Below are positions 32,537 to 54,331 of a stretch of DNA of 64,000 nt, piece by piece (position 1 is the first letter of the stretch; each line of letters starts with the position of its first letter). The translations under genes were made by a program, and so were the position numbers. Under the pieces are notes generated by a model. It did no database searches and was not told the origin of the DNA. It was given only the letters and a program-made list of their open reading frames with translations. This DNA is from Myxococcales bacterium (GTDB taxonomy: Bacteria > Myxococcota_A > UBA9042), in assembly GCA_023954815.1 (NCBI GenBank), contig JAGSHB010000007.1:3626-67625 (forward strand), written 5' to 3'.

Positions 32537-33643
32537 ATGTCAGATTCGATGGACCGTTTTGGTATCATCCTGCGCTTTGCTGCTGAGCGGCACCTGACCG
32601 ATGTGCATTTCAAGGCCGGCCAACGCCCGCTGTATCGGCGGGCTGGGCGCCTGATTTCACGGCGCGAAGAAGCCACTTTTGACGATGTCGCCCTGACCGA
32701 GATCGCTGGCGGCCTGTTCAACGCCGAGCAAGCCCAAGCGTTCAATGAAGGGGAAGAAGTCACCACGTCCTACGGGCTGGTGGGTACCGGGCGCTTCCGT
32801 GTTCACGTCTTCCGCCAACGCGGCACCATCAGCCTGGCTGCCCGGGTGCTCCCGTCCCGCGTAGTCTCCATTCGCGAGCTGCACTTGCCCCAAGCGACGG
32901 GCAGTCTCGTCAACGCTGAAAGCGGACTGGTGCTGGTCTGCAGTGGTGGCGGCCAAGGTCGTACGTCGACGCTCGCGGCGATGATCGACGCCGTAAATAC
33001 GGCCTCTCAGCTCACCCGCCACGTCGCCACCGTCGAGTCGCCAATCGAGGTCCTCTTCGAAGACAAACTCGCCTGGATTAGCCAGCGCGAAGTGGGCATC
33101 GACTGCAATAGTTACGTGGCCGGCATCAAGGGTGCGCTCAAGCAAGACCCAGATGTGCTCATGGTTGACGACGTGGGTGACCGCGATGTGTGGGATGCGG
33201 TCCTCGGCGCCGCCGAGTCTGGTTGTCTGGTCGTGGCGTGTGTGCGGGCGATGGATCTGTCGCAGATGTTCCGCTACCTCATCGGCCTCGGCGGCGAGCA
33301 AGAGGCGGGTTGGCGTAGTCGACTCGCCGGGCTGTTCCTCGGTGCGATCTCCACGAAGTTGGTACACTCCGCCGACGGCAAGGCCCGCTATCCGGCGTGT
33401 GAAGTCCTCATGGCGAACGATGTCGTCTACACACTGGTACGCGACGGTCACGATCCGGCGACCCTGTACGACGTGATGCACCAGCACCAGCCACAGGGCA
33501 TGCAGACCATCGATCAGAGCCTGCACGACATGCTCAACGCGAAGGTGATCACAGGCGAGATCGCCCTCGCTCACGCCATGCGGCCGGCCGAATTGCAGAA
33601 TATGCGCTCCACCGGCGCGCGCTATGAGTCGGGTCTATTTTAG
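32537..33643 (+). CDS. PilT/PilU-family protein with degenerate ATPase motifs
   Basis: TDVHF, GRFRVHVFRQRG, ESPIE, QREVG.D, ALKQDPDV and GMQTIDQSL are retained. Walker A reads SGGGQGRT. Confidence 0.85.
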   Translation: MSDSMDRFGIILRFAAERHLTDVHFKAGQRPLYRRAGRLISRREEATFDDVALTEIAGGLFNAEQAQAFNEGEEVTTSYGLVGTGRFRVHVFRQRGTISLAARVLPSRVVSIRELHLPQATGSLVNAESGLVLVCSGGGQGRTSTLAAMIDAVNTASQLTRHVATVESPIEVLFEDKLAWISQREVGIDCNSYVAGIKGALKQDPDVLMVDDVGDRDVWDAVLGAAESGCLVVACVRAMDLSQMFRYLIGLGGEQEAGWRSRLAGLFLGAISTKLVHSADGKARYPACEVLMANDVVYTLVRDGHDPATLYDVMHQHQPQGMQTIDQSLHDMLNAKVITGEIALAHAMRPAELQNMRSTGARYESGLF

Positions 33644-33716
33644 CAGCGTGCGGCGTAGTTAAAATGACTGTCGCAGCACCCCGCTAGTTTTCTTCATCAT
33701 TGGGGGACTAGGAGCG
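33641..33716 (+). repeat. 76-bp dispersed structured element, copy A
   Basis: 70/76 identical to the reverse complement of 54256-54331 (manual alignment). Confidence 0.9.
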
Positions 33717-33871
33717 GCCCCTGTCGTTCACGTGTCAGCGCGGAACAGTTCGAAGTGCTGGGCCGTGATGCGGGAATCTCCGGCGCGCGTATCGCGTTGA
33801 TCCAAGGTTGACGCCCCCGCCCGTCCGCTTACCTTCTCTTATCGCAGTTCATGCGCTCAAGGAGACCTACG

Positions 33872-34648
33872 ATGCCCACCCAGCAAGACCCTCGCACTCA
33901 GACTCGCCCATGGGCTGAGCCCCAGGAGCAGCCGACCGGCGTGCCGGGTACCCGCGGCCTCGGCAACGTCGGTTCATTCGAGCACGGACGCCGCTCCGAG
34001 ATGGCCGTGACCTTCATGAACCATGTCTTCGGCTGGATGGCAGGCGGATTGGCCCTGTCCGGTGCCGTCGCCTGGGTCGTGATGAGTTCTGCGGCAATAT
34101 TCAGCACCGTCTCGAGCCTCTTCTTGCCCCTCGTCATCGGCGAGCTGGTGATGGTGGTCGTGCTCAGCGCGCGACTGCACAAGATGAGCGCCGCGACTGC
34201 AGGTGCCATGTTCCTGGCCTACGCCGCGCTCAACGGACTGACGCTGGGTGTCGTCGTGGCGATGTATACGGGCGCCTCGGTCGCGAGGGTGTTCTTCATC
34301 ACCTCGGGCACGTTCGGCGCCATGGCTGTCATTGGCGCGACGACCAAGAAAGACCTGACGGGCATGGGCTCGTTCCTGATGATGGGGGTGATCGCCATTA
34401 TCATCGCATCGGTCGTCAATCTCTTCCTAGCCTCGTCGGCGTTGGATTGGACGATTAGCGTCGTCGGCGCGCTCATCTTCGCTGGGCTGACCGCCTACGA
34501 TGTGCAGAAGTTCAAGGCTGCGGGTTACATGGGGTTCGCGACCAAGCGTGAGGCCGGTCAGGGCGCGATTCGCGGTGCGCTGAACCTGTACCTCGACTTC
34601 ATCAACATGTTCCTCTTCATGCTGCGCCTGTTTGGCGACCGGCGGTAA
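33872..34648 (+). CDS. Bax inhibitor-1/YccA family membrane protein
   Basis: FMNHVFGWM, TKKDLT.MGSFL, AYDVQK, ALNLYLDFINMFLFMLRLFG. Confidence 0.93.
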   Translation: MPTQQDPRTQTRPWAEPQEQPTGVPGTRGLGNVGSFEHGRRSEMAVTFMNHVFGWMAGGLALSGAVAWVVMSSAAIFSTVSSLFLPLVIGELVMVVVLSARLHKMSAATAGAMFLAYAALNGLTLGVVVAMYTGASVARVFFITSGTFGAMAVIGATTKKDLTGMGSFLMMGVIAIIIASVVNLFLASSALDWTISVVGALIFAGLTAYDVQKFKAAGYMGFATKREAGQGAIRGALNLYLDFINMFLFMLRLFGDRR

Positions 34649-34683
34649 GATCCAGCGGGGCACAGCCATCCGCCCAACAAATA

Positions 34684-34717
34684 GAAGGGCCGCTCTCCAT
34701 TGGGAGAGCGGCCCTTC
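34684..34717. terminator. Bidirectional intrinsic terminator between convergent yccA-like and typA genes
   Basis: GAAGGGCCGCTCTCC-ATTG-GGAGAGCGGCCCTTC perfect 15-bp stem. Confidence 0.85.
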
Positions 34718-34774
34718 GTCTTTGGCGGAAACCGCGAGCCGTTACGCGGCTATGTGGCTGATTTTGTAGGCAGA

Positions 34775-36595
34775 TTAGGCCTTTTTACGCTTCTTGTCGT
34801 AACGCTTACGCTCGTTGTGATCGAGGTAGCGCTTGCGCAGGCGAATGCTCTTCGGTGTGACCTCGACCAGCTCGTCGTCGTCGATGAACTCCAGGCATGC
34901 CTCAAGGTTCATCTCCTTCGGTGGGGTCAAGATCAGCTTGTCATCAGCGCCGGCCGACCGGATGTTCGTCAGCTTCTTCGCCTTGCCTGGGTTGATGACC
35001 AGATCACTGTCCCGTGCGTGGATGCCGATAACCTGACCCTGGTAGATCTTGGCTGCAGCGCCAACCAACATCTGACCACGCTCCTGCAACGTAAAGAGGC
35101 TGTACGGGGTCGTTGTGCACGCCTCCAACGCGATGAGCATGCCGTTCTTACGACGACGGATCACACCGCGCCACGGTCCGTAGTGGCTGTAGTTGTGGTA
35201 GACGACGCCGGTTCCACGGGTGTCGGTCAGGAACTCAGACCGGTAACCGATGAGGCCGCGTGACGGCACGATGAACACCATCCGAGTGGTGCCGTCGCCG
35301 TTGACTCGCATGTCCTGCATCTCGCCGCCGCGCTTGGCGAGCTTGTCGATGACGGCGCCCGAGAATTCATCACCGCATTCAGCGACGACGTCCTCGTAGG
35401 GCTCAAGCACCGCACCCGACTCGTCCTTACGCGTGATCACGCTGGGCGAACCGACCTGCAGCTCGAACCCCTCGCGGCGCATGGTCTCAATGAGCACCGA
35501 CAGGCTCATGGTGCCGCGGCCTTTGACGCGCAGGACCTCGGGGCGCTCCGTCTCTTCGACGACGAGGCTGACGTTGTGCTCCAGCTCGCGATCGAGACGC
35601 TGCCGGATGTTACGACTGGTCACGAACTTGCCTTCCAGACCGGAAAACGGCGAGTCGTTGACCATGAACTCCATGCTCAAGGTGGGCTCATCGATCGGAA
35701 TGGAATCCAAGGGATCGAGGTGGCCTTCTGCGCAGAGCGTCTCACCGACGGTCACATCACCGACACCGGCCAAGGCGACCACGTCACCGGCGATGGCCGA
35801 ATCGATGTCGACGCGGTCGGTGCCCAAGAAGCCCATGAGCTTGCTGACACGGAAGCTCTCGGTGGAGCCGTCGACGCGAATCTGCACCAGGCGATCACCT
35901 TTGGCGATTGTGCCGCGGTAGATCCGGCCGATGGCGATACGGCCGACAAAGTCATCGCGATCGAGGGTCGCGACCTGCAGCTGCAGCGGGCCCTCGATGT
36001 CAAAATCGCAGGCTGGGACGTGCTCAAGCACCAGATCCATCAGCGGCGACAGGTCTTTCGGCTCGTCGTCCGGCTCATGCATCGCATAACCATCACGACC
36101 GCTGGCGTAAATGACCGGGAACTCCAGCTGATCTTCGTTGGCGTCCAGGTTCACGAACAGGTCGAAGACGTCATCGAGCACGCGATCGAGATCGCGGTCT
36201 GGGCGGTCGACCTTGTTGATGACCACGATCGGCTTGAGACCGAGCGCCAGGCTCTTGCGCAGCACAAAGCGCGTCTGCGGCATCGGGCCCTCGGCGGCGT
36301 CGACGAGCAACAGCACGCAATCAACCATGCGGAGGATGCGCTCCACTTCAGCACCGAAGTCGGCGTGGCCCGGGGTGTCGACGATATTGACGACGTTGCC
36401 CTTGTAGTGAACCGCCGTGTTCTTCGACAGAATCGTGATCCCGCGCTCGCGCTCAAGGTCGTTGCTGTCCATGACCCGCTCGTGAGCGAGGCCTGATCTG
36501 CCGACTGCGCCACACTGCTTGAGCACCTCGTCGATGAGGGTGGTCTTGCCGTGATCGACGTGGGCGATGATTCCGATATTGCGGACGCGCTGCAT
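34775..36595 (-). CDS. typA: Translational GTPase TypA/BipA
   Basis: [49 protein letters not shown]. Confidence 0.98.
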
Positions 36596-36715
36596 GAGCG
36601 GACCCCTTTTCTGCGGCGCGGAGGCCGTGCTGACAAGAGGAGCCAGAAGGCTCCGTGAAAAAAATGGCGGGAAGGTTGTGCGGACTGAGTCACCCGCAGC
36701 GATGCGCTGGTGACA

Positions 36716-37093
36716 CTACCCTTCTGAGCAGACACATTGCCGCGGGACGCGACGACGGTGATCCCGGCAGCGCTCGCGGCCAACGCGACACTGACCGATG
36801 AGTGCGGCTACCTCAGGGTAGGCGCGGCCGTAGGCGCAGAGATCTTCGGAGAGGTGGCAACTCTCCACACTGCGACCACACATTTCGTGACAGAAGTCCA
36901 AGGCGTCATCTTTCGAGGCGACTGAACTGATTTGGTAACCAAGCTGAAGTTGGCGGCTCGTAGCGACCTGAATCGCTACGCGATCCTTTTCGTCGACGCC
37001 CATGAGGCCGTCGATCCGCTGATCGGGTGCACTGCAAGCGCCAATGGCGCAAACCCCCACTAACAACAAGGCGATGACGAGTAGTCGACTCAT
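36716..37093 (-). CDS. Small Cys-rich lipoprotein
   Basis: Lipobox IGAC followed by eight further Cys in a helical C-terminal region. Confidence 0.65.
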   Translation of the reverse strand: MSRLLVIALLLVGVCAIGACSAPDQRIDGLMGVDEKDRVAIQVATSRQLQLGYQISSVASKDDALDFCHEMCGRSVESCHLSEDLCAYGRAYPEVAALIGQCRVGRERCRDHRRRVPRQCVCSEG

Positions 37094-37390
37094 GAAAATG
37101 CCGCGCTTCCGCGTCTCCTGCTTGGTCAAGTGCCGACCGCCAACGTCGTGGCGTAGGCGGAGCGTCTACCTGTGTAGGTCGCCAGTGTAAAGGCCGGGGT
37201 GACCCATAGCAAGGCGACGCGGGCGCAGTATCCCGATGACGGAGCGTTCGCTTTTATCAGTGATGTCCCACCCATGCCGTGAGCATCCGTCATCGCCTGG
37301 ACACTGGCCCACCATTGCACACAGACTCTGCCCTGCCGTCGCCTGGGCAGCAGCGCCCCGGCGGTCCCCCCCTATTAGCTGAGAACCGCC

Positions 37391-39247
37391 GTGACCGATT
37401 CTGCCCGCAAGCCTCGGACCCTGGTTACCCTCTTTGAAGCGACCACTACGCAACATGCCGGTCGAGGTTTGTTGCGCAGCCGCCCTGCGGATGTTTGGCA
37501 ACGTGAGACGGGCAGCGAGTGGCGCACACGCGCCTGCACGTGGGCCCGAGGGCTGATGGCACAGGGGCTGCAACCCGGTGAGCGAGTTCTGGTATTGGCG
37601 GAGACATCACCGCAATGGTGCATGGCCGAGGCCGCGATCCTCATCGCCGGTGGCGTCGTTGTGCCCGTATATAATAGCCACCTCCCCGAGGATATCGCCT
37701 GGGTTGCCGGTGACTGTGACGCGCGTTTTGTGATCGCCCACTGCCCCTTCCAGGTGGAAAAGCTGGTTCGTGTTCGGGACCGCATGCCGGCGGTGAAGCG
37801 GGTCTACTACTTCCACGCCACGGGTCGCCGCACCCTGCCCGACCGTGATGGTCGCCGGGAGCTGACCATCGACGTGGTCGTTCCGCCGTCGGATGAGTGG
37901 GTGCGGCCGATCAGCGAGCTAAAAGCCGAGAAAACCAGCGTAGAAGCCATGCGGGACCGGTCCGCGGCCATCACGCCGGAGACCCCCTGCACCTTTGTCT
38001 ACACCTCGGGAACGACGGGTCGGCCGAAGGGGGTCGTGCTGACCCACGGCGCCTTCGTGGCCGAGATCGAAGCCGCCACCGGTGCCTTGGCGATCGGTGA
38101 GCGTGATGCCCTGCTGCTGGGTCTCCCCTTGGCCCACATCCTCGCTCGCGTGGTGGCGTGGGTGGCGATTGCAGTGGGCGCGGAGCTGATCTTCCCGCGC
38201 AGCCATCGGACCCTCGCTGAAGACGTCAAAGCGACCCAGCCCACGATCATTCCGGCGGTTCCCCAACTTCTTGAAGATGTGCAAGCCGCCGTTATCAGCG
38301 AAGCGGCGAGCGCAGGGCGCATCCAACGGCGTGTTTTCAACCGTGCTGTGCGCGTGGGGCTCCAAGTGAGTCAGCTGCGTCAACAGGGTCAGGAGCCGGC
38401 GGGACTGCTGGCGGCGCGTCATGCGGTGGCCAAGAAGGTCGTGCTCGACAGTCTGCAACAGCGGCTGGGCGGGCGCGTGCGCTTTCTCATTAGCGGCGGT
38501 GCGCCCTTAGCCCGCGATCTGGCCGAGTGGTTTCATGCCTTTGGTCTGTTGGTGCTCGAGGGTTATGGCCTGACCGAGACCTGCGCGGCGGTGACGGTCA
38601 ATCGCGTCGATCGCTATAAGTTCGGTACCGTCGGCCTGCCGCTCGATGGCGTCGAAGTCGCGCTGGCCAAAGACGGCGAGGTCTTCATTCGCAGCCCCGG
38701 GCTCATGAGCGGCTATCACGGCAGGCCAGATGAGACAGCAGAAGTACTCGACAAGGACGGCTGGCTGCATACGGGCGACATCGGCGAGATCGACAGCGAC
38801 GGCTACCTGCGCATCACCGATCGAAAAAAGGACATCATCGTCACGGCAGGCGGCAAAAACATCGCGCCACAGAACATCGAGGCCCATCTCAAGGGCGATC
38901 CACTCATCGGCCAGGCCATGGTCTATGGCGACAGGCGGCGCTTTCTCACCGCGCTGCTGACCCTGGACGAACCGGAGCTCAAGCGGTGGTGCGCCGCGGA
39001 AGATGTGCCGTACACCACCTATGCCGAGGTCTGCCAGCGGCCTGAGGTCTACCGGCGAATTGAAGCCGTGGTGCAAGAGCGCAATCGGCGGCTGGCGAGC
39101 TACGAGACCATCCGTAAATTTGCGGTCCTCGATCGGCAGTTCGCGCTCCATGAAGGCGACCTGACCCCAACTGGGAAGGTCCGCCGCAAGCAGGTGACGC
39201 GGCGTTATCGCACGCTGCTGGATGCGTTTTACTCCGAGGCGTTCTAG
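37391..39247 (+). CDS. Long-chain fatty acid--CoA ligase (AMP-dependent synthetase)
   Basis: YTSGTTGRPKGV, LPLAH, EGYGLTET, WLHTGDIG, ITDRKKDII, GKNIAPQ. Confidence 0.94.
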   Translation: MTDSARKPRTLVTLFEATTTQHAGRGLLRSRPADVWQRETGSEWRTRACTWARGLMAQGLQPGERVLVLAETSPQWCMAEAAILIAGGVVVPVYNSHLPEDIAWVAGDCDARFVIAHCPFQVEKLVRVRDRMPAVKRVYYFHATGRRTLPDRDGRRELTIDVVVPPSDEWVRPISELKAEKTSVEAMRDRSAAITPETPCTFVYTSGTTGRPKGVVLTHGAFVAEIEAATGALAIGERDALLLGLPLAHILARVVAWVAIAVGAELIFPRSHRTLAEDVKATQPTIIPAVPQLLEDVQAAVISEAASAGRIQRRVFNRAVRVGLQVSQLRQQGQEPAGLLAARHAVAKKVVLDSLQQRLGGRVRFLISGGAPLARDLAEWFHAFGLLVLEGYGLTETCAAVTVNRVDRYKFGTVGLPLDGVEVALAKDGEVFIRSPGLMSGYHGRPDETAEVLDKDGWLHTGDIGEIDSDGYLRITDRKKDIIVTAGGKNIAPQNIEAHLKGDPLIGQAMVYGDRRRFLTALLTLDEPELKRWCAAEDVPYTTYAEVCQRPEVYRRIEAVVQERNRRLASYETIRKFAVLDRQFALHEGDLTPTGKVRRKQVTRRYRTLLDAFYSEAF

Positions 39248-39324
39248 CCAACACGCGTCTTTCATTGGGGCGCTAGCGACGGAGCGGCGGCTCGCGTATA
39301 CATCCGCTCCGAGGAGGTCTGTGC

Positions 39325-40059
39325 ATGCCCATCGCTCCCCCAGTTTCTGAGCCACATCCCAAGACGCTCATCTGCCTACCGACCTACAATGAGGCGGAGA
39401 ACCTGCCGTTGATGGTCACCGCTATCTTCGACGTCGTGCCGGCGGTCCACATCTTGGTGATCGACGACAACAGCCCGGACGGTACCGGCGCCATCGCCGA
39501 CGAATTGGCTTCGACAGACGAGCGCATCCATGTGCTGCATCGAACCGCAAAGGAAGGACTCGGCAGAGCCTACATAGCCGGGTTCAAGTGGGCGCTTGAG
39601 CGTGACTATGCGCTGATCTTCGAGATGGACTGCGACTTCTCTCATCAGCCGAAATACTTGCCGGAATTCATCAAAAAGACTGAATCTGCGGACGTTGTGC
39701 TCGGATCGCGCTACATCCCAGGCGGCGGCACAGAGGACTGGGGCGCGAGCCGCAAGCTCATCAGCCGCGGTGGTAATGTCTACGCCCAGGCGATCTTGGG
39801 CCTGCCGTACAAAGACCTGACAGGCGGCTTCAAGTGCTTCCGGCGCGAAGTGCTGGAGGCCTTGCCCCTCGATGACATTTTCGGCGGCGGTTACGTCTTT
39901 CAGATCGAGTTGACCTACCGCAGCGTGAAGCTCGGCTTCAAGATCGGCGAAGTCGCCATCGTCTTTCCAGATCGCACACGCGGCGAGTCGAAGATGGATA
40001 AATCGATCGTCCTGGAGGCAGTCCGCAACGTGTGGAAGTTGCGCCTGCGGGTGCACTAA
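39325..40059 (+). CDS. Polyprenol monophosphomannose synthase (Ppm1/DPM1-like GT2)
   Basis: PTYNEAENL, IDDNSPDGT, GLGRAY, MDCDFSHQP, DLTGGFKCFRR, DRTRGESKM. Confidence 0.92.
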   Translation: MPIAPPVSEPHPKTLICLPTYNEAENLPLMVTAIFDVVPAVHILVIDDNSPDGTGAIADELASTDERIHVLHRTAKEGLGRAYIAGFKWALERDYALIFEMDCDFSHQPKYLPEFIKKTESADVVLGSRYIPGGGTEDWGASRKLISRGGNVYAQAILGLPYKDLTGGFKCFRREVLEALPLDDIFGGGYVFQIELTYRSVKLGFKIGEVAIVFPDRTRGESKMDKSIVLEAVRNVWKLRLRVH

Positions 40060-40213
40060 TTGGCTCCGATTGGCCTGCAATCGTCGTCATCGCGCCGGTT
40101 GTTGTTGGCTCAGAAGAGGCGACCCCCTACACTCCGGGCCCGCGGTGCCAGCCGCTACCAAATCTGACCCCGCGCCGACCCACCCTGGCGCCCAACAGTG
40201 AGAACGCAACACC

Positions 40214-40693: not shown

Positions 40694-40836
40694 TAATCCG
40701 TCCCTACGAGCGTAGATAGCTGTACCGCAACGACGACTCAGGCACGTCCTCCCCTGCAATCGGCACGGGCGGACGAGGCGGCTGACTGCTCGGTCGCCGC
40801 GTGGCCAGAAAGTCGATCGGTCACCGCGAGGAATTG

Positions 40837-47025: not shown

Positions 47026-47389
47026 GCGATAGGCTGGCTCCACGCGGTGAAAACGCGCTGGGGTACTGTACGCAGCGTCCACCATTTGCACACCATCTAA
47101 GAACAAAATTTGCGCTCTCGGGAACACTTTTGTTACCGCGTGGGGTTAGGTCAGGAGGTCGGCACGCGCGTGACCGGCTTGCATCCCATCAGGGGCGCTG
47201 TCACGATTCGCCGCGCAATCAGGCGCCCAGGGCACGACAGCCAGGGTCCTCAGATAGCAAGCAGATCACTGTCGAAACGGACGATACACCGACGGCGCGC
47301 CCACCCTGGGTGTTTGATCTGAAACCTACCTCGCCCCTGACGACTCGCTCGGGGCCACGAGGAACCCGCCCCTCCACAGAGGACAAACG

Positions 47390-48034
47390 ATGGTCGAGCA
47401 GCTAGCCCATATTCTCAATCAGCTCGGAGCCGAGTGGGTGCTTTGGACCCTGATCGTGCTGAGTGTGATCTCGGTCGCCATTGTGATCGAGCGCATCTTG
47501 TTCATGCAGCGCAACCGCGTGCCGGTGGCGGAGCTGCAGCCGCGCCTGCTGAGTGCCTTGGGCGAGGGCAAGGACGCCGCCGAGAAGGTGTTGGCGCCCC
47601 ACTCCGGCATGGAAGCGCAGGTGGCGCTCGCCGGTGTGCGCGAGATGGATCGCGGCCCTGCTGCGGTTGAGGAGTTGATGGCGGCGAGCATGGCTGTCGA
47701 GCGGCTCAGATACGACAAATTCCTTGGTTTTCTGGGGTCTTTGGGTGCAAACGCGCCATTCATTGGCCTGCTCGGCACGGTGATCGGCATCATGGGCGCG
47801 TTCGCTGATCTGCAGACGACCATGGGCGGAGAGGGCGGCGACGCCAACCGGACCCAAGCGATCATGGGCAGCATCTCGGAGGCGCTCGTTGCGACCGCTG
47901 TGGGTCTGTTCGTCGCCATTCCGGCGGTCTGGGCCTACAACCAGTTCAAAGGTCGCATCAAGCATGTTCAGGGCAACGCCACGGCGCTCGGTGCGGTCGT
48001 GCTCGCCCACGTGAAGACGGAAGATCAAGACTGA
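47390..48034 (+). CDS. MotA/TolQ/ExbB proton channel protein
   Basis: LGSLGANAPFIGLLGTVIGIM, ISEALVATAVGLFVAIPA. Confidence 0.95.
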   Translation: MVEQLAHILNQLGAEWVLWTLIVLSVISVAIVIERILFMQRNRVPVAELQPRLLSALGEGKDAAEKVLAPHSGMEAQVALAGVREMDRGPAAVEELMAASMAVERLRYDKFLGFLGSLGANAPFIGLLGTVIGIMGAFADLQTTMGGEGGDANRTQAIMGSISEALVATAVGLFVAIPAVWAYNQFKGRIKHVQGNATALGAVVLAHVKTEDQD

Positions 48035-48076
48035 CCGCCTCATCCAGGAACTGACCCCACTTTCTCGGAGCACACC

Positions 48077-48511
48077 ATGGCTGCAAAGCTCGGCGGCGGT
48101 GACGACGACGCCATCACCGACATCAACGTGACGCCGCTGGTCGACATCATGTTGGTGCTCTTGATCATTTTCATGCTGACCAGTGAAGCGGTCACCAAGA
48201 AGGTGAAGAATCCAGCGATCGATGTGGACTTGCCGACCGCGGCTTCGGGGGAAGACAAACCCGAGGAGCCGCTGAGTGTGGTGATCAACAAAGAGGGCGC
48301 GCTGTTTCTCAACGGCAAGGAACTCAAAGAGGCGGACTTGCGCGCCAAAGTGAAGGCGCGGGTCTTGTTGCGCGGCAAGGCCAAAGTCGAAGCGGTGCTC
48401 AGCGCGGACAAGGGGCTGTCCCACGGCCGTGTGGTTCGTCTCATCGATATGCTGCGTGTGCTTGGGGTCCAGAACGTCGCGATTAATACGAAAGAACAGG
48501 AAATTCAGTAG
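48077..48511 (+). CDS. ExbD/TolR protein
   Basis: INVTPLVDIMLVLLIIFM, ADKGL.HG.VV. Confidence 0.95.
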   Translation: MAAKLGGGDDDAITDINVTPLVDIMLVLLIIFMLTSEAVTKKVKNPAIDVDLPTAASGEDKPEEPLSVVINKEGALFLNGKELKEADLRAKVKARVLLRGKAKVEAVLSADKGLSHGRVVRLIDMLRVLGVQNVAINTKEQEIQ

Positions 48512-48561
48512 CGCTGGAGCCTCCGCAATCGCTACGGTCGATTTCTTCGGCAACGCCCACC

Positions 48562-49404
48562 TTGACGAGGTCGCTCATCGCCACTGACTCCCCGCTGTTT
48601 GATCGCGATCTCATCGTCGGCCTCGGTCTGGCGCTGGTGCTGCATATTGCGCTCGGGTGGTGGGGCGCGCAGCTCGACATCAGCCATCCTGAGACCAAGG
48701 AAAAAGAGCGGACTGTGGCGCGCGCGGTCTATCAAGACGTCAAGTTGCCCCCGCCGCCGCCGCCGCCTCCCCCGCCGCCGCCGCCGCCGCCCAAGCCGGA
48801 GCCGAAGCCCGAGCCCGTGGTGAAGAAGGAGGCGCCGAAGCCGCCCAAAAAGCGCGGCCAGCCCAAGCGCAAGAAGAAAAAGCGCAAGAAGAAACAGAAA
48901 AAGCCGAAGACCAACGAGCCGGCGCCCTTGGTGCTGTCGAAGACCTATGGGGCCACCGGCGGCGACAGTGGCGTCGTGGTGCAGACAGGCGACGACGACA
49001 TGTTTGGCGATCCCGCGATCGAGGCCAACGAAAACAACACCCGGCCGCGCGGCGACGATGATGACGCCCCCAAGACCGCATCCCCCGGCCCGACCGGTGA
49101 CGGCAAGAAGAAAGAGCACAAGGTCGTCATCGTGCACGCCCGACCTAAGACGCGCTGCAAAGTGGACTGGCCCAAGGGCGCGCCAGCGTCGCGGCGGATC
49201 GTTGAAGTGACCATGCTGTTGCGGATTTCTAAGAGCGGAAAAGTCACTCCCAAACGCATCCTCAAGGGGGCGGGAGAGCCCTTCGATAGCGCAGCTAAAA
49301 CGGCGCTGAGACGCTGTAAATTCAAGCCAGGCACCCGAGACGGCAAACCATTTGCCGATCGCGTACCCTTCATCGTGGAGTTTCGGCCCGGGAGCGGTAC
49401 ATGA
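48562..49404 (+). CDS. TonB-family energy transducer
   Basis: TM helix with S.xxH-like ALVLH, 15-Pro run, Lys-rich linker, TonB_C (G.V....ILKG.G..FD.AA..AL...KFKPG.RDGKP). Confidence 0.88.
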   Translation: MTRSLIATDSPLFDRDLIVGLGLALVLHIALGWWGAQLDISHPETKEKERTVARAVYQDVKLPPPPPPPPPPPPPPPKPEPKPEPVVKKEAPKPPKKRGQPKRKKKKRKKKQKKPKTNEPAPLVLSKTYGATGGDSGVVVQTGDDDMFGDPAIEANENNTRPRGDDDDAPKTASPGPTGDGKKKEHKVVIVHARPKTRCKVDWPKGAPASRRIVEVTMLLRISKSGKVTPKRILKGAGEPFDSAAKTALRRCKFKPGTRDGKPFADRVPFIVEFRPGSGT

Positions 49405-50477
49405 GCCGGAGAGCGCTGCAGAATATCGGGCGATTGGTCCTGGGCTGCGCGCTTGCACTGTCGCTTGGATGTCAGCAGCCCTACGACCCGCCGTCGCTCA
49501 TCAACAAGCTGCGCGTGGTGGCGGTCAACGCTCAGCCGCCAGTCCTAACCACGGCGCCTACGACGCTGCGGCCCTTGGTCATCGGCAATGATCCAGAGCA
49601 GGGCCTGTGCTACGCATGGTCTCTGTGCCTGTTCGCGGTGAGTCAGAACGGCAACTACGTCTGTGTCGACCCGGAGCTTGAGGTCGGGCTGGGCAACGAA
49701 CCGACGGCGAAAGTCGCGTTGGTGGATGCGCTGACGCTGCTGCCCAAGATTCCCGGTGTGTTTGAGAAGTTGAAGATCGAGTTACCCAAGGGGCTCGGTC
49801 TGCCCGACCCCAGCGACGCGAACAAACAACCGAGCCTCGAGGATTTGAGCGGTTTGGAGATCTTCGTTCGTTTCAAGGTGGCCGAAGACGGTGCAGCGGC
49901 CTGCCCGACAGACACCGCCAAGTGGCTTGATCAACCTTGCGCCGACCGGACGACGTGTCTGGCGGGTTACAAGCGGATCGCCATCGCCACGGCCGACAAG
50001 GACAAGCATACGAACCCCGAGCTCACCGGGTTGGAGCTCGATGGCGTGCTGTGGCCAGCCGATGTGACCCCGACGGTGCGCTGCTACGGTGGCGACGACG
50101 GGTACGGCCAGTCTGGATCAGGCGCGGTGCCGATGAAGCCTGTCTGGAGCCCTGAAAGTATCGAGGTCATCGGGCCGAATCCGGACCCCACAAAGACGGA
50201 GCCACTAGAGGAGGGCATGCTCTTTTCGTGGCTGTCGACCGAAGGCGGCTGGGACAAACAACGCTCCTACGACGATGTGCCCGAAAACGATTTCTATCCA
50301 CCTGACTACGACGGAGAGCCCACTCGCCGGGTGCGGATTTGGGTGGTGTTGCGAGATGGCCGAAACGGCACCGTCTGGACCACGCGACAGGTGGACGTCA
50401 GCGCCTCGGCACCGGCGACTGGCCATCCGCTTTGTCGCGAAAAGGCCGATTTACCGGGCTGTTCCGACCTCAAGTAG
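49401..50477 (+). CDS. Lipoprotein coupled to tonB
   Basis: ATGA overlap; lipobox SLGC; PSLINKLRVVAV.AQPP, NPEL, VVLRDGRNG. Confidence 0.8.
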   Translation: MSRRALQNIGRLVLGCALALSLGCQQPYDPPSLINKLRVVAVNAQPPVLTTAPTTLRPLVIGNDPEQGLCYAWSLCLFAVSQNGNYVCVDPELEVGLGNEPTAKVALVDALTLLPKIPGVFEKLKIELPKGLGLPDPSDANKQPSLEDLSGLEIFVRFKVAEDGAAACPTDTAKWLDQPCADRTTCLAGYKRIAIATADKDKHTNPELTGLELDGVLWPADVTPTVRCYGGDDGYGQSGSGAVPMKPVWSPESIEVIGPNPDPTKTEPLEEGMLFSWLSTEGGWDKQRSYDDVPENDFYPPDYDGEPTRRVRIWVVLRDGRNGTVWTTRQVDVSASAPATGHPLCREKADLPGCSDLK

Positions 50478-50496
50478 CTTCTGGGCTGGTCGCAGT

Positions 50497-50543
50497 GCGG
50501 TCTCGGCGCGGTCTCGGCGCGGTCCCATGGGAGTCCCATGGGA
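50497..50543. repeat. Two adjacent 11-bp tandem duplications (GCGGTCTCGGC x2.5; GTCCCATGGGA x2)
   Basis: Directly visible; TCCCATGGGA is a perfect palindrome. Confidence 0.85.
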
Positions 50544-50593
50544 TGAGAGTTGGACCCACGGCCATCCCATAACTAGCGATCATCATTGTCGTC

Positions 50594-51328
50594 ATGCGCT
50601 GGCATGGACGCTGCACAGTCATGGGCCGAACCACGCTGGAGGCCCCCATGAGACGACACGACCCACAATCCGCATCAGCCAATCGCCACTCCCTCAGCAC
50701 GCGTCGTCGCTTGGGAGCGCCACCTGACACACATGTCGGCGGGCAACCCAGACCCGCCATCGGGCCGTCGCACGCACTGCTGCTCTTGATCGTTGTGATG
50801 ATGGGAGCATGGGCGACGCCCAGGGCAGGCCTCGCCCAGGCGAGGAGTCCTCGGGCGCATTGTATCGTGCCAACAGTGGACCGCGCCCGCATCACCCGGG
50901 CGCTGAGCCGCGTCGCTCGCCGACCGAAAGCCAATCACCCATCCAGACTGTGGGCGCTGCTGCCGACGAAGGTCGCGGCATCGGGGCGGCAGATGATCAA
51001 CTCGGGTGCGGGCGTGTATCTGGGCGAGCTGTCGCAGACGGAGCGATGGCTCATCGGCGACCGCCGCGGCTGGAGCGTGCGGGTGACGTGGGATCTCAGG
51101 CAACTCTGGCAAAGCAACCGCCGGCCGCGACCGAGCAAGCTTAGTCATATTCTACGGACGGACCACATCGCAGAGCGCGTCGCAAAGACCTTGATGAAGG
51201 TGGGGCGGGCGCGTGCCACTGCGATGCGGCTGAGCGCAGGCACGCCCGGGTGTGTGCAAGCCCAAACCACGGCAGAGGCCGCTATTTTACGGCTCAGAAG
51301 CTTATTGGCAGCTGTGAATTCGCGGTGA
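50594..51328 (+). CDS. Hypothetical exported protein
   Basis: Hydrophobic signal-like segment, LWALLP.KV, WSVRVTWDLRQLW. Start uncertain. Confidence 0.5.
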   Translation: MRWHGRCTVMGRTTLEAPMRRHDPQSASANRHSLSTRRRLGAPPDTHVGGQPRPAIGPSHALLLLIVVMMGAWATPRAGLAQARSPRAHCIVPTVDRARITRALSRVARRPKANHPSRLWALLPTKVAASGRQMINSGAGVYLGELSQTERWLIGDRRGWSVRVTWDLRQLWQSNRRPRPSKLSHILRTDHIAERVAKTLMKVGRARATAMRLSAGTPGCVQAQTTAEAAILRLRSLLAAVNSR

Positions 51329-51329
51329 G

Positions 51330-52403
51330 CTACGCCAGTCCGGCCGTCGCCATACGCTTGGTGCGCTCGGCGGCGTGCAGGCCTTCGACGACCGGATCGA
51401 GCCCGCCTTCGATGACACTGTCGAGCGCGTGCAGCGTCAGACCGATGCGGTGATCGGTGACCCGATTTTGCGGGAAGTTGTAGGTGCGAATGCGCTCGGA
51501 GCGGTCACCCGAACCCACCTGCGCGCGACGATCAGCGTCGTGGGCGCTCTTGGCCTTGCGCTGTTTTTCGTCGTAGAGCTTGGTACGCAACAAGCTCATC
51601 GCCCGGTCGCGATTCTTGTGCTGCGAACGCTCGTCTTGGCATTGCACCACCACGCCGGTCGGCACGTGGGTAATCCGCACGGCAGAGTCGGTCCGGTTGA
51701 CGTGCTGGCCACCCGCGCCGCTGGCCCGATAGGTGTCGATGCGCAGGTCGGCGGTGTTGATCTCGATGTCGACGTCTTCCACTTCGGGCAGCACCGCGAC
51801 GGTGACGGCCGACGTGTGGATGCGCCCCTGACTCTCCGTCGCTGGAATCCGCTGAACCCGGTGCGTCCCCGACTCGTGCTTGAACTGCGAAAAGGCCCCG
51901 AGGCCGTTGATGACGCAGACAACCTCTTTGAGACCGCCCTGAGCCGCTTCATTGGCCGACAACTGCTTCATCTTGAAGCCTTTCGACTCCGAAAAGCGGG
52001 CGTACATCCGCAGCAAGTCACGCACAAAGAGGGCCGCTTCTTCGCCGCCTGTACCGGCACGAATTTCCAAGACGACATTGGCGTTGTCCCGCGGATCTTT
52101 GGGGATCATCAGCTCTTTCAGCTGGCTCTCCGCCTCACCGCGCTGGCCGACCAGATCGTCGAGCTCTTCCTTCGCCATGGCCCGCATTTCCGGGTCTTTT
52201 TCGTCCTGCATCATCTCGCGGGTGGCATCGACCTCGTCCGAGAGCTCGACCAATCGCTTGTACGTAACCACCGTCTCTTCGATCGACGTGCGCTCCCGCA
52301 TGAGCTTGGTCATCTGCTTGGGATCAGAGGCGATCTCCGGGGTGGAGAGCGCGGCATCGATCTCGTCGAAGCGAGCGACGACTTCTTCGAGTTGCTCAAA
52401 CAT
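51330..52403 (-). CDS. prfA: Peptide chain release factor 1
   Basis: GAGGQHVN (GGQ), RIPATES (PxT, RF1 type), RIRTYNFPQNRVTDHR. Confidence 0.98.
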   Translation of the reverse strand: MFEQLEEVVARFDEIDAALSTPEIASDPKQMTKLMRERTSIEETVVTYKRLVELSDEVDATREMMQDEKDPEMRAMAKEELDDLVGQRGEAESQLKELMIPKDPRDNANVVLEIRAGTGGEEAALFVRDLLRMYARFSESKGFKMKQLSANEAAQGGLKEVVCVINGLGAFSQFKHESGTHRVQRIPATESQGRIHTSAVTVAVLPEVEDVDIEINTADLRIDTYRASGAGGQHVNRTDSAVRITHVPTGVVVQCQDERSQHKNRDRAMSLLRTKLYDEKQRKAKSAHDADRRAQVGSGDRSERIRTYNFPQNRVTDHRIGLTLHALDSVIEGGLDPVVEGLHAAERTKRMATAGLA

Positions 52404-52537
52404 TGCGAACTCCTGCAGGCACCAAAGCGAAACGAACCGGCTCCGCATCACGGAGCCGTGTGCCGGTGGTGTAGTCGGCCAGCCAGGGAAACTCAACCAT
52501 CGAGGTCACACCCGGGGCCTTCGCCGGCGCTTGACGG

Positions 52538-53431
52538 CTAGTCAGCGTCGGAATCAGGGAGCCCGCGACCGAGGAGAGCGGCGTATGCAGCACCCGCAAT
52601 CTCAAGTTCGGCTGCCTCTGGCTCCGGGCGCGCGACACTCGCCAGGGTCTCGGTCCAGCCAGGGAGCGCCTTGCCAAGGCTGACTCGCCAACCCACCAAC
52701 ACTAGGCAGATCGGGGCCGACACAAAGGGCGCCCACACCATCGGGGCAACGAGCAGGGGGTTATGGGTCGCGGCACCACCGGCTGTGCCCGTCGTGTCGA
52801 TCAACAGCAGCAGAAGCAGTGACAGCTCCACGAGGCTGGCCGCAAACGAGGTCGTCAGCAACATCGCAGCGCCACAGGTAAGCGGCCCGGTGTGCTCGTG
52901 CTCGGCTGCATGCAGACGCTGGCGAAGGGTCGGTCGTCCGACAGCGACCCGCAGGGATTGGACGATCCAAGGCGCCAGGCGACCCACGAGCCGCAGCACC
53001 ACAGCCGTCAACCCAATGACCATGGGCCGGGATGCGCCTTCCCACGGCTGCGTCGCCCAAATCCAGACCAAAATCGGAGGCATCAGCAGCCAAGTCGCAA
53101 GCGGCAAAAGCGCGCGCAATCGCGAACCCTTGGCGACGATCGGCGAAGCTGAAAAGGCGCTCGGCGGCCCGCGTTTTAGGTGCTGGCGCGCGTTTTCGGC
53201 TGCAGTGACCAGCGACCAGGGCCCCCAGAAGCCAGAATCAGGCGCCGGAAAACGGGCGATCCCAACAGCACCTGACGGCAACCTAGCTGCAACGACACCG
53301 ACGTCGCCGGAGACCATGGCGACGCCATCCGATAGCGCGCTGGCCCAACGCAGGGCGCGGCTCGGCGAAGGCACCACTGGTTGAGATTGCGCCAACATAT
53401 TTACCATCTCCCCAAACTTTGCTCTTGCCAC
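52538..53431 (-). CDS. Divergent DUF1385-like membrane protein
   Basis: Position upstream of prfA; DGVAM, HAAEH, TCG and RPEPEAAELEIA echo DUF1385 motifs. Confidence 0.55.
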   Translation of the reverse strand: MARAKFGEMVNMLAQSQPVVPSPSRALRWASALSDGVAMVSGDVGVVAARLPSGAVGIARFPAPDSGFWGPWSLVTAAENARQHLKRGPPSAFSASPIVAKGSRLRALLPLATWLLMPPILVWIWATQPWEGASRPMVIGLTAVVLRLVGRLAPWIVQSLRVAVGRPTLRQRLHAAEHEHTGPLTCGAAMLLTTSFAASLVELSLLLLLLIDTTGTAGGAATHNPLLVAPMVWAPFVSAPICLVLVGWRVSLGKALPGWTETLASVARPEPEAAELEIAGAAYAALLGRGLPDSDAD

Positions 53432-53491
53432 AGCGCATTTGCGAAGCTAATTGCTGGACCCCAGCGGCGCTAGTCCGCGCAGGAGACACTT

Positions 53492-54163
53492 ATGGCGGTC
53501 GTACACCACCCCGATCCGAAGACAGTCCTCGCCCTCATCGACGCGGTACCCGCCGGCGGCCATATCGCGACGGACTGCGACGGCACCGTTTGGTCTGGCG
53601 ATGTCGGCGATGATCTGGTCATCGCTGCCGAGCGCGACCCGGCCCGTTTCGGTGGAGCTGAGATCAGCTTCGACGCCTACATCACCCGCCAACAGACCGA
53701 CTACGAGGGCGCCTGCCTGTCGGCCTGCGAAGTGCTGCGCAATATCAGCGAGCAAGACGCGGCCGAGGCCCTGCGAGATGTCGTGCCAGACGACTTTACC
53801 GGTCGACGCTACATGGTCGAGGCCCTGCAAGCCGCCATGGCCCGGGGCGTGTCTGTGTGGCTCGTGAGCGCCTCCCCGTTGCTCGCGGTGCAGGTCGGCG
53901 CTGGGCTCGTCGGCCTGGAGTCCGCCGGTATGATCGGCATCGAGCTGGACCCGAAAGATGGTTTTGTGGCGCCGTGGCCCATCGGCCCAGGAAAGGCAGC
54001 CGCGTGGCGTGCCCGCGGTCTCCCGCAACCCGATCTGGCCTTCGGTGACAGCAAGTGGGACTTGCCCCTGCTCAACAGCGCCGCCACCGGCGTGATGCTG
54101 GTGCCCGCTCCCAAAGACGCCCTCGTCACCCGCTCCGCTGCCGAGGTGCGCCAAGCCTGCTAG
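53492..54163 (+). CDS. HAD-superfamily hydrolase
   Basis: DCDGT (DxD), LVSAS, GKAAA, AFGDSKWD. Confidence 0.88.
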   Translation: MAVVHHPDPKTVLALIDAVPAGGHIATDCDGTVWSGDVGDDLVIAAERDPARFGGAEISFDAYITRQQTDYEGACLSACEVLRNISEQDAAEALRDVVPDDFTGRRYMVEALQAAMARGVSVWLVSASPLLAVQVGAGLVGLESAGMIGIELDPKDGFVAPWPIGPGKAAAWRARGLPQPDLAFGDSKWDLPLLNSAATGVMLVPAPKDALVTRSAAEVRQAC

Positions 54164-54255
54164 GAGACTGCGCTTTTTCTCGACTTTTCGGAGAAGGACG
54201 CATTTGGAGCGCAGTCTGCTGGGATGGGGAAGTCGCGGCTCGCCGCGACTGGGGG

Positions 54256-54331
54256 CGCTCCTAGCCCCCCAATGATGAAGAAGACTAGCAGTGTGCTGCG
54301 ACAGTAATTTTAATTACGCCGCACGCTGCTA
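54256..54331 (-). repeat. 76-bp dispersed structured element, copy B (inverted relative to copy A)
   Basis: 70/76 identity to 33641-33716. Confidence 0.9.

Follow-up and report, generated by a model that had tools for sequence, protein, structure and literature searches.

The 64,000-nt stretch of DNA analysed here (the window), from an uncultured myxobacterium, contains a structured intergenic element in two inverted copies. The question is whether these copies are RNA genes or regulatory RNAs, a switch that inverts the segment between them, or mobile repeats. An earlier note had reported that positions 33641-33716 on the forward strand and the reverse complement of 54256-54331 are identical at 70 of 76 positions and that their intergenic surroundings are unrelated. 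Both observations were confirmed. The first copy (copy A) is flanked by a T2SSE/PilT-like ATPase gene and a Bax1-I gene, and the second (copy B) by a HAD hydrolase gene and an EI24/CysZ-like gene. In a whole-genome search the similarity reaches 33726 in copy A and 54246 in copy B, covering 86 nt at 91% identity (E ~4e-28). The repeat itself is real, but it is not a 76-bp element, as the full unit measures 172 nt. Both copies very probably belong to a lineage-specific family of small, non-coding and non-autonomous mobile repeats, with a mosaic organization that resembles MITEs and REP/BIME elements.

The full element carries CTAG at both ends and contains four hairpins. It is made of four copies of one 13-16-nt arm, CTAGCAG(A/C)(C/G)TGCG, which fold into the 5' terminal hairpin (48 nt) and the 3' terminal hairpin (~60 nt). 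Because the arms build hairpins at both ends, the element has terminal inverted repeats of 13 nt with the same consensus. These match at 11 of 13 positions in this genome, G000 (CTAGCAGCGTGCG compared with the reverse complement CTAGCAGACTGCG), and at 13 of 13 in G002, the only other species of the genus found to carry the element. The 60-nt spacer between the end hairpins holds two short GC hairpins. Conservation ends exactly at CTAG on either side, and the flanking sequences are unrelated among copies. The first base of the 5' NTAG is C in 81% of copies and that of the 3' CTAG in 95%; a GTAG tag is found in only ~10%.

Copy A comprises hairpin 1, the T-rich tract, hairpin 2 and the very start of hairpin 3. 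It begins with TTAG, its first base being T, and the upstream gene has its TAG stop codon at nucleotides 2-4 of this copy (33641-33643). In copy B the terminal CTAG (54160-54163) provides the TAG stop at 54161-54163 of the forward-strand hydrolase gene. This copy is among only three full copies in which the 3' end, rather than the 5' end, is on a stop codon. That the two copies are inverted relative to each other is not meaningful in itself: copy A shows the usual sense orientation, copy B the rare antisense one. A partial third match had been proposed at 39263-39286. Several unrelated tiles of the window score at least as well as this segment, which was missed both by nhmmer and by a scan allowing three mismatches.

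Table 1. Coordinates of the two element copies, their parts and the genes that share stop codons with them.
Feature	Position	Strand	Description
Copy A	33640..33726	+	Model positions 1-87, 3'-truncated; nhmmer C216:37266-37351, model 2-87, E 1.2e-21
Copy A hairpin 1	33640..33687	+	48-nt imperfect palindrome with AT-rich apex; from fold
Copy A T-rich tract TTTTCTTCATCATT	33688..33701	+	Directly 3' of hairpin 1
Copy A hairpin 2, GGGGGACT-AGG-AGCGGCCCC	33702..33721	+	Helix 2 paired in 99.4% of cells, 40 copies
T2SSE/PilT-like ATPase gene, upstream of copy A	32477..33643	+	TAG stop within the first 4 nt of the element
Copy B	54160..54332	-	173 nt, full length, CTAG...CCTAG, four hairpins; nhmmer C216:57957-57785, model 1-172, E 3.8e-54
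Copy B hairpin 1	54285..54332	-	5' end 9 nt from the start codon of the divergent gene 54342..55235 (+)
Copy B hairpin 4	54160..54221	-	Arms CAGCAGACTGCGC / GCGCAGTCTCCTAG, A-rich loop of ~36 nt; helix 4 paired in 89% of cells
HAD-family hydrolase gene	53492..54163	+	Stop codon inside the 3' terminal CTAG of copy B

The earlier note had listed a lack of further copies among the findings that would refute its proposal, and genome-wide blastn found such copies in abundance. Counted as non-overlapping hits of blastn and nhmmer, the genome contains ~129 loci: 56 full copies, 27 units of model positions 1-114, 21 5' parts, 14 solo copies of hairpin 1 and 11 others. At least 10 pairs among the 1-114 units are arranged in tandem with a period of ~111 nt. 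Mean identity to the consensus is 87.9% in G000 and 95.7% in G002. The full copies are located between convergent (23), unidirectional (24) or divergent (5) genes, and only six of them extend more than 10 nt into a predicted gene.

The element has a narrow distribution. Among 41 genomes (G000 and 40 relatives), it is carried only by G000 and G002, the latter with its own 160-nt subfamily. The 22-nt core motif has no other match among 185,579 species genomes and none in JGI metagenome contigs. In a third congener, G003, all 14 orthologous sites are empty, and at five of these the stop codon is part of one lone CTAG. Filled sites have CTAG at each end, and empty G003 sites have one. Seven of 10 orthologous sites are empty in G002, as are 11 of 14 sites in the reverse survey. 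At the site of copy A, the T2SSE/PilT-like orthologues in G003 finish with CTAA and the element is absent, and the orthologue in G002 finishes with CTAG followed by a 16-nt remnant of the element 5' end. At the site of copy B, the hydrolase orthologue in G003 finishes with TGA and lacks the element. The filled and empty sites fit a duplication of TA or CTAG, and they fit equally well the insertion of the element's own 3' CTAG after a target TAG.

These observations bear out the suggestion of a REP/MITE-like element: ~129 dispersed loci, terminal inverted repeats, CTAG ends, empty sites in a congener and occurrence in two species only. Like a MITE, the element is small and non-coding, occurs in many dispersed and near-identical copies, has terminal inverted repeats and is polymorphic for presence at orthologous sites. 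A cognate autonomous IS with the same ends was not found; the assemblies are fragmented, and this absence is weak evidence.

The positions of the copies relative to stop codons are highly biased. In 27 full copies, an upstream gene with the same orientation as the element has its TAG stop at element nucleotides 2-4. The 5' end is on the stop in 27 copies and the 3' end in three (binomial p ~1e-5). The element is found at or beside the stop in 74 of 1791 genes ending in TAG, compared to five of 1129 ending in TGA and three of 440 ending in TAA. CTAG occurs at 0.29 of its expected frequency, with 740 sites at stops and 1,694 in intergenic regions. Since over half of all genes here use TAG as their stop and CTAG is rare elsewhere, stop codons would offer an ample and harmless target for insertion. 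Neighboring copies within a contig are on the same strand in 10 cases and on opposite strands in 16, indicating that the polarity is independent of the chromosome strand.

We propose that a transposase supplied in trans would recognize the arms and insert the element at (C)TAG. The gene side of the element begins with TAG, and so insertion at a TAG stop would rebuild the stop and leave the protein unchanged. With less confidence, we attribute the polarity, 5' end on the stop and orientation following the gene, to selection on the transcript rather than to the chemistry of insertion. An element in the sense orientation may provide the transcript with a 3'-end hairpin or intrinsic terminator right after the stop, or at least be tolerated in that role, which we also propose with less confidence. 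In the younger G002 subfamily the polarity is weaker, 14:6, which fits a gradual purging by selection. The contrast between 27:3 and 14:6 is only suggestive.

Several known repeat families resemble the element. TA-duplicating bacterial MITEs include Correia/NEMIS of Neisseria, ERIC/IRU, RUP and IS630-derived MITEs, and IS630 inserts into CTAG and duplicates TA. Like them, the element falls in the size range of 100-200 nt, lies between genes, is bounded by terminal inverted repeats with TA/CTAG at the ends, shows one CTAG where a site is empty, folds into long hairpins and is probably co-transcribed with neighboring genes. Unlike them, it has no IS with matching ends among those found, its ends are whole hairpins, it has a strong sense polarity on stops and it commonly forms tandem 111-nt arrays. 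No autonomous partner with matching ends was found in the fragmented assemblies of G000 and G002, and in G000 no additional pair of element ends encloses a gene. G000 has no IS630-type DDE_3 gene; G002 contains a single IS630-like DDE_3 gene with inverted repeats unrelated to the element. BIMEs of E. coli are mosaics of REP units and linker motifs, and some attenuate transcription or stabilize the upstream mRNA. The element resembles them in its mosaic of hairpin, linker with small motifs and hairpin, in the tandem reiteration of a sub-unit and in its position at gene 3' ends. It differs from them in its unrelated sequence, terminal CTAG and larger units.

GTAG-tagged REPs, such as SMAG of Stenotrophomonas (Di Nocera et al. 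2013), are also high-copy extragenic palindromic hairpins located mostly between convergent or unidirectional ORFs, occurring as single units, dimers and arrays, and the TAG in their terminal tag is often the stop codon of the flanking ORF (PMC3733652). The element is similarly extragenic and enriched between convergent and unidirectional genes. In contrast to these REPs, it lacks a conserved GTAG/CGTC tag at one end and carries a palindromic CTAG at both. Its hairpin measures 48 nt, compared to 20-40 nt, its common unit is a four-hairpin mosaic of 172 nt bounded by true terminal inverted repeats of 13 nt, and no RAYT association was found. A REPIN consists of two inverted REPs, each palindromic, and is associated with a RAYT gene that has these REPs on either side (Bertels & Rainey 2011, PMC3116915; PMC3337134). 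REPINs likewise are hairpin-forming, non-autonomous and lineage-restricted repeats that evolve within each genome, with the same sites filled in related species (PMC3116915; PMC3337134), whereas our element shows neither paired palindromic REPs nor a REP-flanked RAYT gene.

As an alternative, the element could be of the REP/REPIN type, with a HUH tyrosine transposase, either a RAYT or an IS200/IS605 relative, moving it in single-stranded form. The enzyme would then insert the element on the 3' side of a (C)TAG target, and the polarity would be inherent in the reaction instead of being selected. The strength of the polarity, 27:3, is in keeping with this, as is the structure of the ends, which are hairpins rather than simple inverted repeats, and the occurrence of solo hairpins. 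The first base varies more in the 5' NTAG than in the 3' CTAG, as expected if one is flanking target and the other is borne by the element. GTAG-tagged REPs, which lend TAG stops and lie between convergent or unidirectional genes, provide a precedent (PMC3733652), and this genome contains 14 Y1_Tnp-domain genes with an intact HUH motif. However, the element is not present within 400 nt of any of the 14, and such flanking is the hallmark of REP-RAYT systems. Y1_Tnp genes are equally present in element-free relatives (four in G003 and five in G006). The element has a palindromic CTAG where REPs have GTAG or CGTC, and its single arms are not palindromes. The excess of opposite over same-strand neighbors on a contig (16 versus 10) argues against insertion coupled to the lagging strand, and copies of G000 and G002 at the same site differ in orientation. 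Altogether we consider transposition by a HUH enzyme unlikely.

We regard it as very unlikely that the copies are small RNA genes or cis-regulatory RNAs with a structure selected at the RNA level. The long hairpin with an AT-rich apex described in the earlier note is real. In the four-hairpin model 93.8% of the cells are paired across 40 copies. Compensatory changes are found at six pairs and in 36 cells; none of 500 shuffles reached 36 cells and five of 500 reached six pairs. Between the subfamilies the hairpins are kept by compensatory changes at pair 8-41 of hairpin 1 and pairs 85-100 and 87-98 of hairpin 3. In addition, most copies are co-oriented with the upstream gene and would be transcribed as part of its 3' UTR. 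Since transposition needs hairpins too, their conservation is not specific to RNA. Within the genome, changes that break a hairpin-1 pair are about 10 times as frequent as those that compensate (92 cells versus 11). A-C mismatches outnumber sense-strand G-U pairs in hairpin 1 (31:11), hairpin 2 (5:2) and hairpin 3 (10:6), and are level with them in hairpin 4 (19:18). The second hairpin suggested previously, CTAGTTTTCT/GGGGGACTAG, needs five U-G pairs, has its closing pair in three of 40 copies and shows no covariation; its G-run pairs instead with a C-run just downstream. The two substitutions that preserve pairing through G-U, which had suggested a strand-specific structure, are both located in this unsupported hairpin. 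A comparison with Rfam yielded nothing at the gathering threshold, the only covariance-model matches having E >5 and coming from eukaryotic snoRNA or HCV models. A promoter-like site was found at neither window copy. The element is missing from orthologous sites in congeners and from all other genera searched. An unannotated RNA family is therefore not supported: Rfam matches are absent, orthologous sites are empty, and variation within the genome mostly breaks pairs.

The suggestion that the inverted copies serve as a recombination substrate for flipping the 20.6-kb segment between them, for which their 86 nt of 91% identity in inverted orientation could speak, is almost certainly wrong: their longest unbroken identical run is ~20 nt, a poor substrate for RecA-driven recombination, nothing singles out this pair from ~129 copies, and in the element-free G003 the orthologues of the copy-A outer and copy-B inner flanks are on the same strand of one contig (C136:1000-1175 and 21546-21673), ~20.4-20.5 kb apart. 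As this is the flank order and strand found in the window, the segment is in its ancestral orientation.

The first part of the element has features of a terminator. Hairpin 1 has a folding energy of -26.5 kcal/mol in the G000 consensus and -26.9 in that of G002. It is followed immediately (0 nt) by TTTTCTTC in G000 and CTTTTCTG in G002, a tract that is T-rich in both subfamilies and whose first four T positions are kept in at least 90% of G000 copies. In sense RNA, this tract would serve as a terminator-like U-tract. Since the conserved T-tract adjoins its 3' side, hairpin 1 looks like a predicted intrinsic terminator. The corresponding layout, a stable GC-rich hairpin and a U-tract in the sense orientation downstream of a gene, is present, and it begins at the stop in 27 copies. 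A consensus terminator scan flagged neither window copy, because hairpin 1 has a bulge and a long apex. Co-oriented genes flank the element on both sides in 16 cases, and in about half of these the downstream gene begins less than 100 nt from the element end. Efficient termination at such a site would have a polar effect on that gene, which speaks against a terminator role.

The family is a new MITE/REP-like one, ordinary in kind, with a tidy stop-codon polarity. It is a fresh case of a well-known type of genomic parasite, neither a new RNA gene nor an inversion switch. A further idea, which we judge distinctly improbable, is that the element is a mobile terminator, a selfish repeat homing in the sense orientation to TAG stops, possibly via the non-template strand exposed by transcription. 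This genome contains few classic hairpin-plus-T-tract sites (86 sense versus 58 antisense among 1,434 genes), which also speaks against a terminator role. If the idea is true, every insertion of the element would install a 3' end with a hairpin and a U-tract, and transposition would have supplied a sizeable share of this lineage's intrinsic terminators, which are otherwise few in the genome.

The two inverted 76-nt sequences described in the earlier note are a genuine pair. Nucleotides 33641-33716 of the forward strand match the reverse complement of 54256-54331 at 70 of 76 positions, and the genes flanking the two sites (copies A and B) differ, so the surroundings are unrelated as was claimed. 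The similarity extends to 33726 and 54246, giving 86 nt with 91% identity. In a search of the whole genome (6.44 Mb), the match has an E-value of about 4e-28, which rules out chance. The 86-nt query found more than 40 matches in the genome of the window (G000; 314 contigs, 63.0% G+C), and 105 were found by a more sensitive blastn search. Alignments that included the flanks indicated that the 76-nt unit is only part of the element, which is 172 nt long. It is composed of CTAGCAGCGTGCGGCGTAATTAAAATTACTGTCGCAGCACGCTGCTAG / TTTTCTTCATTATT / GGGGGGCTACGAGCGCCCCC / AGTCGCGGCAAGCCGCGACT / TCCCCATCC / CAGCAGACTGCGCC...(A-rich loop)...GCGCAGTCTGCTAG. Conservation breaks off abruptly at the CTAG of either end, and the sequences beyond are unrelated. 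The arm CTAGCAG(A/C)(C/G)TGCG occurs four times in the element, at model positions 1 (+), 48 (-), 109 (+) and 172 (-), so that its ends are hairpins and terminal inverted repeats at once. In the G000 element, hairpin 1 measures 48 nt and hairpin 4 about 60 nt, and the terminal inverted repeats match at 11 of 13 positions.

An nhmmer profile identified 129 non-overlapping loci in G000. They include 56 full-length copies, 27 units spanning model positions 1-114, 21 copies with the 5’ end kept and the 3’ end truncated, 14 solo copies of hairpin 1 and 11 others. The 1-114 units form at least 10 tandem pairs, which repeat every 111 nt or so. After several stop codons in G000, nothing more than the initial 12-20 nt of the element (TAGCAGCGTGCG.. 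or TAGCAGACTGCG..) is present. These short remnants look like footprints or heavily truncated copies overlooked by nhmmer, and the 129 loci are therefore a lower bound. More than a dozen contig ends in G000 carry copies, indicating that the repeat itself fragments the assembly. A third partial match in the window, at 39263-39286, was dropped and is taken as chance. Only about 22 nt of it can be aligned, with gaps, and several unrelated tiles of the window score equally well or better. It was missed by nhmmer and by a scan allowing three mismatches.

Features of the window, the related genomes and the element model (G002 and G003 are congeners of G000 with and without the family, respectively)
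Feature	Position	Strand	Remarks
T2SSE/PilT-like ATPase gene	window 32477..33643		one flank of copy A
Copy A	window 33640-33726	+	3’-truncated class
Bax1-I gene	window 33851..34648		other flank of copy A
HAD hydrolase gene	window 53492..54163		one flank of copy B
Copy B	window 54332-54160	-	full length
EI24/CysZ-like gene	window 54342..55235		other flank of copy B
tRNA gene	window 17470-17543	-	68.4 bits
Short-remnant gene ends (examples)	G000 C190:5625, C219:35591, C65:45380, C100:15994, C261:406		
Shared occupied stop sites	G000 C133:5005, C212:9886, C218:27203, C314:11983		versus G002 L095, L096/L128, L104, L135
Orthologous sites in G003	C136:1000-1175 and 21546-21673		
1,263-nt repeat	G000 C65:14700-15960, C171:6900-8160		repeat 92% identical; two Y1_Tnp genes lie in it
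IS630-family element	L142 (G002:C835) 94-1605		DDE_3, 387-aa ORF; 36-nt imperfect inverted repeats
Compensatory pair, hairpin 1	model 8-41		C-G to A-U
Compensatory pair, hairpin 3	model 85-100		U-A to C-G
Compensatory pair, hairpin 3	model 87-98		G-C to A-U

The distribution of the element is narrow. Among 41 genomes, G000 and 40 relatives of the same genus, family and class, it is present only in G000 and G002. The G002 subfamily is 160 nt long, about 77% identical to the G000 consensus, and has perfect 13-nt inverted repeats. A 22-nt core motif common to both subfamilies was found in 45 stretches in a scan of 185,579 species (one genome each), all of them in a single metagenome bin, JAUIAC01 (‘bacterium isolate 5_bin.26’), which is G002. 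No relatives of the element were found in JGI metagenome contigs or public plasmids. The G+C contents of the two genomes differ by about 9 points within one genus (63.0% in G000, 71.7% in 262 kb of G002 loci).

To probe mobility, the 180-nt upstream flanks of 20 copies were joined into one query against three congeners, and the matching sites were retrieved. G003 is 100% complete and lacks the family, and each of the 14 orthologous sites retrieved from it is empty. In five of them, a lone CTAG stands precisely at the stop codon; the rest show TTAG, GTAG, CTAA or TGA. In G002, 7 of 10 orthologous sites are empty, and the remaining three contain a full copy, a solo hairpin and a 16-nt remnant of the 5’ end, the last at the orthologue of the copy A site. 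The reverse survey, from G002 copies to G000, found 3 occupied and 11 empty sites. At sites filled in both species, each species has its own subfamily, and at some of them the form (full or solo hairpin) or the orientation differs. Such sites are either repeated hits on a few permissive CTAG stops or older insertions that have since been homogenised or replaced. Shared ancestry of these copies was not adopted, as it is indistinguishable from repeated hits and the copies differ in type and orientation. Mean identity to the consensus is 87.9% in G000 and 95.7% in G002. The empty and filled sites, together with the different ages of the subfamilies, indicate that the element is mobile or was until recently, and show that the family expanded separately in the two species. 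A search for strain polymorphism through contigs encoding identical proteins found one Logan contig (run SRR13262724), which matches the window without differences through the HAD gene up to a point inside the element, where it breaks. The number of loci, the empty orthologous sites and the terminal inverted repeats bear out the earlier suggestion of a REP/MITE-like element, and we consider it very probable that the element is a mobile repeat.

The element is located at the ends of genes. Gene prediction in G000 relied on a simple finder based on codon usage (4,435 genes, 88% of the genome). Overlaps of more than 10 nt with a gene are seen in only 6 of the 56 full copies. Full copies are found between convergent genes in 23 cases and divergent genes in 5; between genes in the same direction, 16 are in the sense orientation and 8 are antisense. 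Nucleotides 2-4 of the element form the TAG stop of the co-oriented upstream gene in 27 full copies, whereas the 3’ terminal CTAG supplies the stop in only 3, including copy B. This 27:3 polarity among the 30 stop-abutting full copies has a binomial p of about 1e-5. A cruder test in G002, based on long high-GC3 ORFs ending on a terminal TAG, found 14 copies with the stop at the 5’ end and 6 at the 3’ end.

The preference for TAG is equally clear from the gene side. Of 1,791 well-scored TAG genes, 74 have the element at or next to the stop, compared to 5 of 1,129 TGA and 3 of 440 TAA genes. At 63% G+C, TGA is usually the dominant stop codon. In G000, however, TAG terminates 52% of the full set of predicted genes and 59% of those with the best scores, with TGA at about 28-36% and TAA at 13%. 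Long ORFs in the 262 kb of G002 end in TAG in 34 cases and in TGA in 40. The CTAG tetranucleotide is strongly avoided in G000, at 0.29 of expectation, with 740 sites at stops, 1,694 in intergenic and 3,837 in coding sequence. The majority use of TAG and the avoidance of CTAG elsewhere create a large stop-codon niche for the element, and roughly a tenth of the CTAG stop sites are filled. Since the element carries (C)TAG on its gene side, insertion at a TAG stop restores the stop and leaves the protein unchanged. The element itself was rejected as the driver of TAG-rich stop usage, because only 4% of TAG genes carry it. No enrichment of CAG after TAG was found elsewhere in G000.

Hairpin 1 has a folding energy of -26.5 kcal/mol in G000 and -26.9 kcal/mol in G002. 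In the sense direction, a conserved T-rich tract comes directly after it (TTTTCTTC.. in G000, CTTTTCTG.. in G002). The antisense direction has no hairpin followed by a T-tract. Hairpin 1 and the T-tract thus have the layout of an intrinsic terminator, and what follows hairpin 1 in sense is the one clear difference between the two orientations. Judged from these sequence features, a role as a putative terminator or 3’-end hairpin is a tentative reading to which we give limited credence. When a sense copy lies between co-oriented genes, the start of the next gene is less than 100 nt away in about half of the cases, which argues against an efficient terminator. The bulge and long apex of hairpin 1 also keep a simple consensus scanner from calling the site. 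In the 150 nt after each gene, classic hairpin-plus-T-tract sites are rare in G000 and barely enriched in sense (86 sense versus 58 antisense, 1,434 genes). The element contributes about 100 hairpin-plus-T modules, about as many as there are candidate native sites in total. The stronger bias in the older G000 subfamily than in the younger G002 subfamily fits gradual sorting by selection, but is only suggestive. A bias tied to the replication strand is an unlikely source of the polarity, because neighboring copies on one contig are on the same strand in 10 cases and on opposite strands in 16; this comparison replaced a GC-skew test, since skew is uninformative in G000 (genes are split 50:50 relative to local skew).

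Four hairpins make up the consensus fold, which totals -75.8 kcal/mol. In an alignment of 30 G000 and 10 G002 copies, 93.8% of the pair cells in this model are standard pairs, and pairing falls to 24-48% when the 3’ partners are slid. Six pairs show double-sided changes in 36 cells, compared to 10.8 cells in shuffles; none of 500 shuffles reached 36 cells and 5 of 500 reached six such pairs. The compensatory changes are mostly differences between the subfamilies. Variation within G000 mostly breaks pairs, with 92 broken and 11 compensated cells in hairpin 1. The earlier note proposed a second hairpin in which two substitutions keep the pairing through G-U, suggesting a strand-specific RNA structure. 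That hairpin relies on five U-G pairs between the T-tract and the G-run; its closing pair is formed in 3 of 40 copies, and it has no double changes, with 372 of 500 shuffles doing as well. The G-run instead pairs with a downstream C-run (helix 2), 99.4% paired. An excess of G-U on the sense strand is absent: A-C mismatches and G-U pairs number 31:11, 5:2 and 10:6 in hairpins 1-3, and are level in hairpin 4 (19:18). The pair-breaking variation and the lack of a G-U excess suggest that the hairpins are maintained in the copies that spawn new ones, and the pair-variation counts give no sign of strand-specific selection at the RNA level on resident G000 copies. Searches of Rfam found nothing relevant to the element, either in the window at the gathering threshold or with both copies at E up to 10. 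Its reading as a small RNA family is unsupported. The only gathering-threshold match in the window is a tRNA gene.

Several candidate movers were considered. A Y1_Tnp (HUH) domain is encoded by 14 paralogous genes in G000 (about 315 aa each), and such genes are also present in element-free relatives. No element is located within 400 nt of any of the 14. Since no such gene is flanked by the element, the defining REP-RAYT arrangement is absent, and the element differs from these systems in its tag as well. One pair of Y1_Tnp genes, on contigs C65 and C171, was rejected as a RAYT link, as it belongs to a different repeat of 1,263 nt, which has inverted repeats of its own. These are 23-27 nt long (GGTGCCAGGCGTTTCACGAAA...), and terminal inverted repeats are unusual for IS200-type transposases. 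IS630-type DDE_3 genes were not found in G000. The sole one in G002 is CTAG-flanked, with GGGCTAGTA at both ends, and appears to sit in a CTAG/TA target; it was rejected as a partner, since its inverted repeats are unrelated to the element. Outside the known copies, the terminal 12-mer is found only in short remnants after stops, and no pair of ends encloses a gene. Unlike a textbook MITE, the element is without a cognate IS in the G000 and G002 assemblies. IS630 duplicates TA within CTAG. The data fit either a DDE enzyme acting in this way or insertion after a target TAG with an element-borne 3’ CTAG. At the junctions, 81% of copies begin with C at the 5’ end, and 95% retain the 3’ CTAG. Given the stop-codon context, both mechanisms predict this profile.

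Inversion of the segment between the two window copies, also raised earlier, is unsupported: identical runs between them are at most about 20 nt, and G003 has orthologues of the gene upstream of copy A and of the HAD gene, which lies inside the segment next to copy B, on one contig and the same strand, 20.4 kb apart, the layout of the window, so that the segment is in its ancestral orientation.

The closest described systems include TA-duplicating MITEs (Correia, ERIC, RUP) and mosaic BIMEs. REPINs (PMC3116915, PMC3337134) are also among them. GTAG-tagged REP families, like the element, favor convergent and unidirectional spacers, and their terminal TAG was reported as a source of stop codons for flanking ORFs (PMC3733652). 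The element behaves in the manner of all these systems. We classify it, as found in two uncultured Myxococcota species, as a mosaic repeat of four hairpins bounded by CTAG and a new family of a known type.

Taken alone, the family adds one more MITE/REP-like repeat to those of bacteria, in an uncultured myxobacterial lineage known only from metagenome bins. In practice, it accounts for many contig breaks in the G000 assembly and can be used as a strain- and species-level marker. Annotation requires caution, as the stop codon of about 80 genes falls inside the repeat. Its scientific value is in one clean pattern, a rebuilt TAG stop with a hairpin and U-tract after it in 27 of 30 cases. If RNA data showed termination, the family would be a clear case of 3’-end signals spread by transposition, and the difference between the older (27:3) and younger (14:6) subfamilies would be a natural experiment in which selection sorts insertions by orientation.
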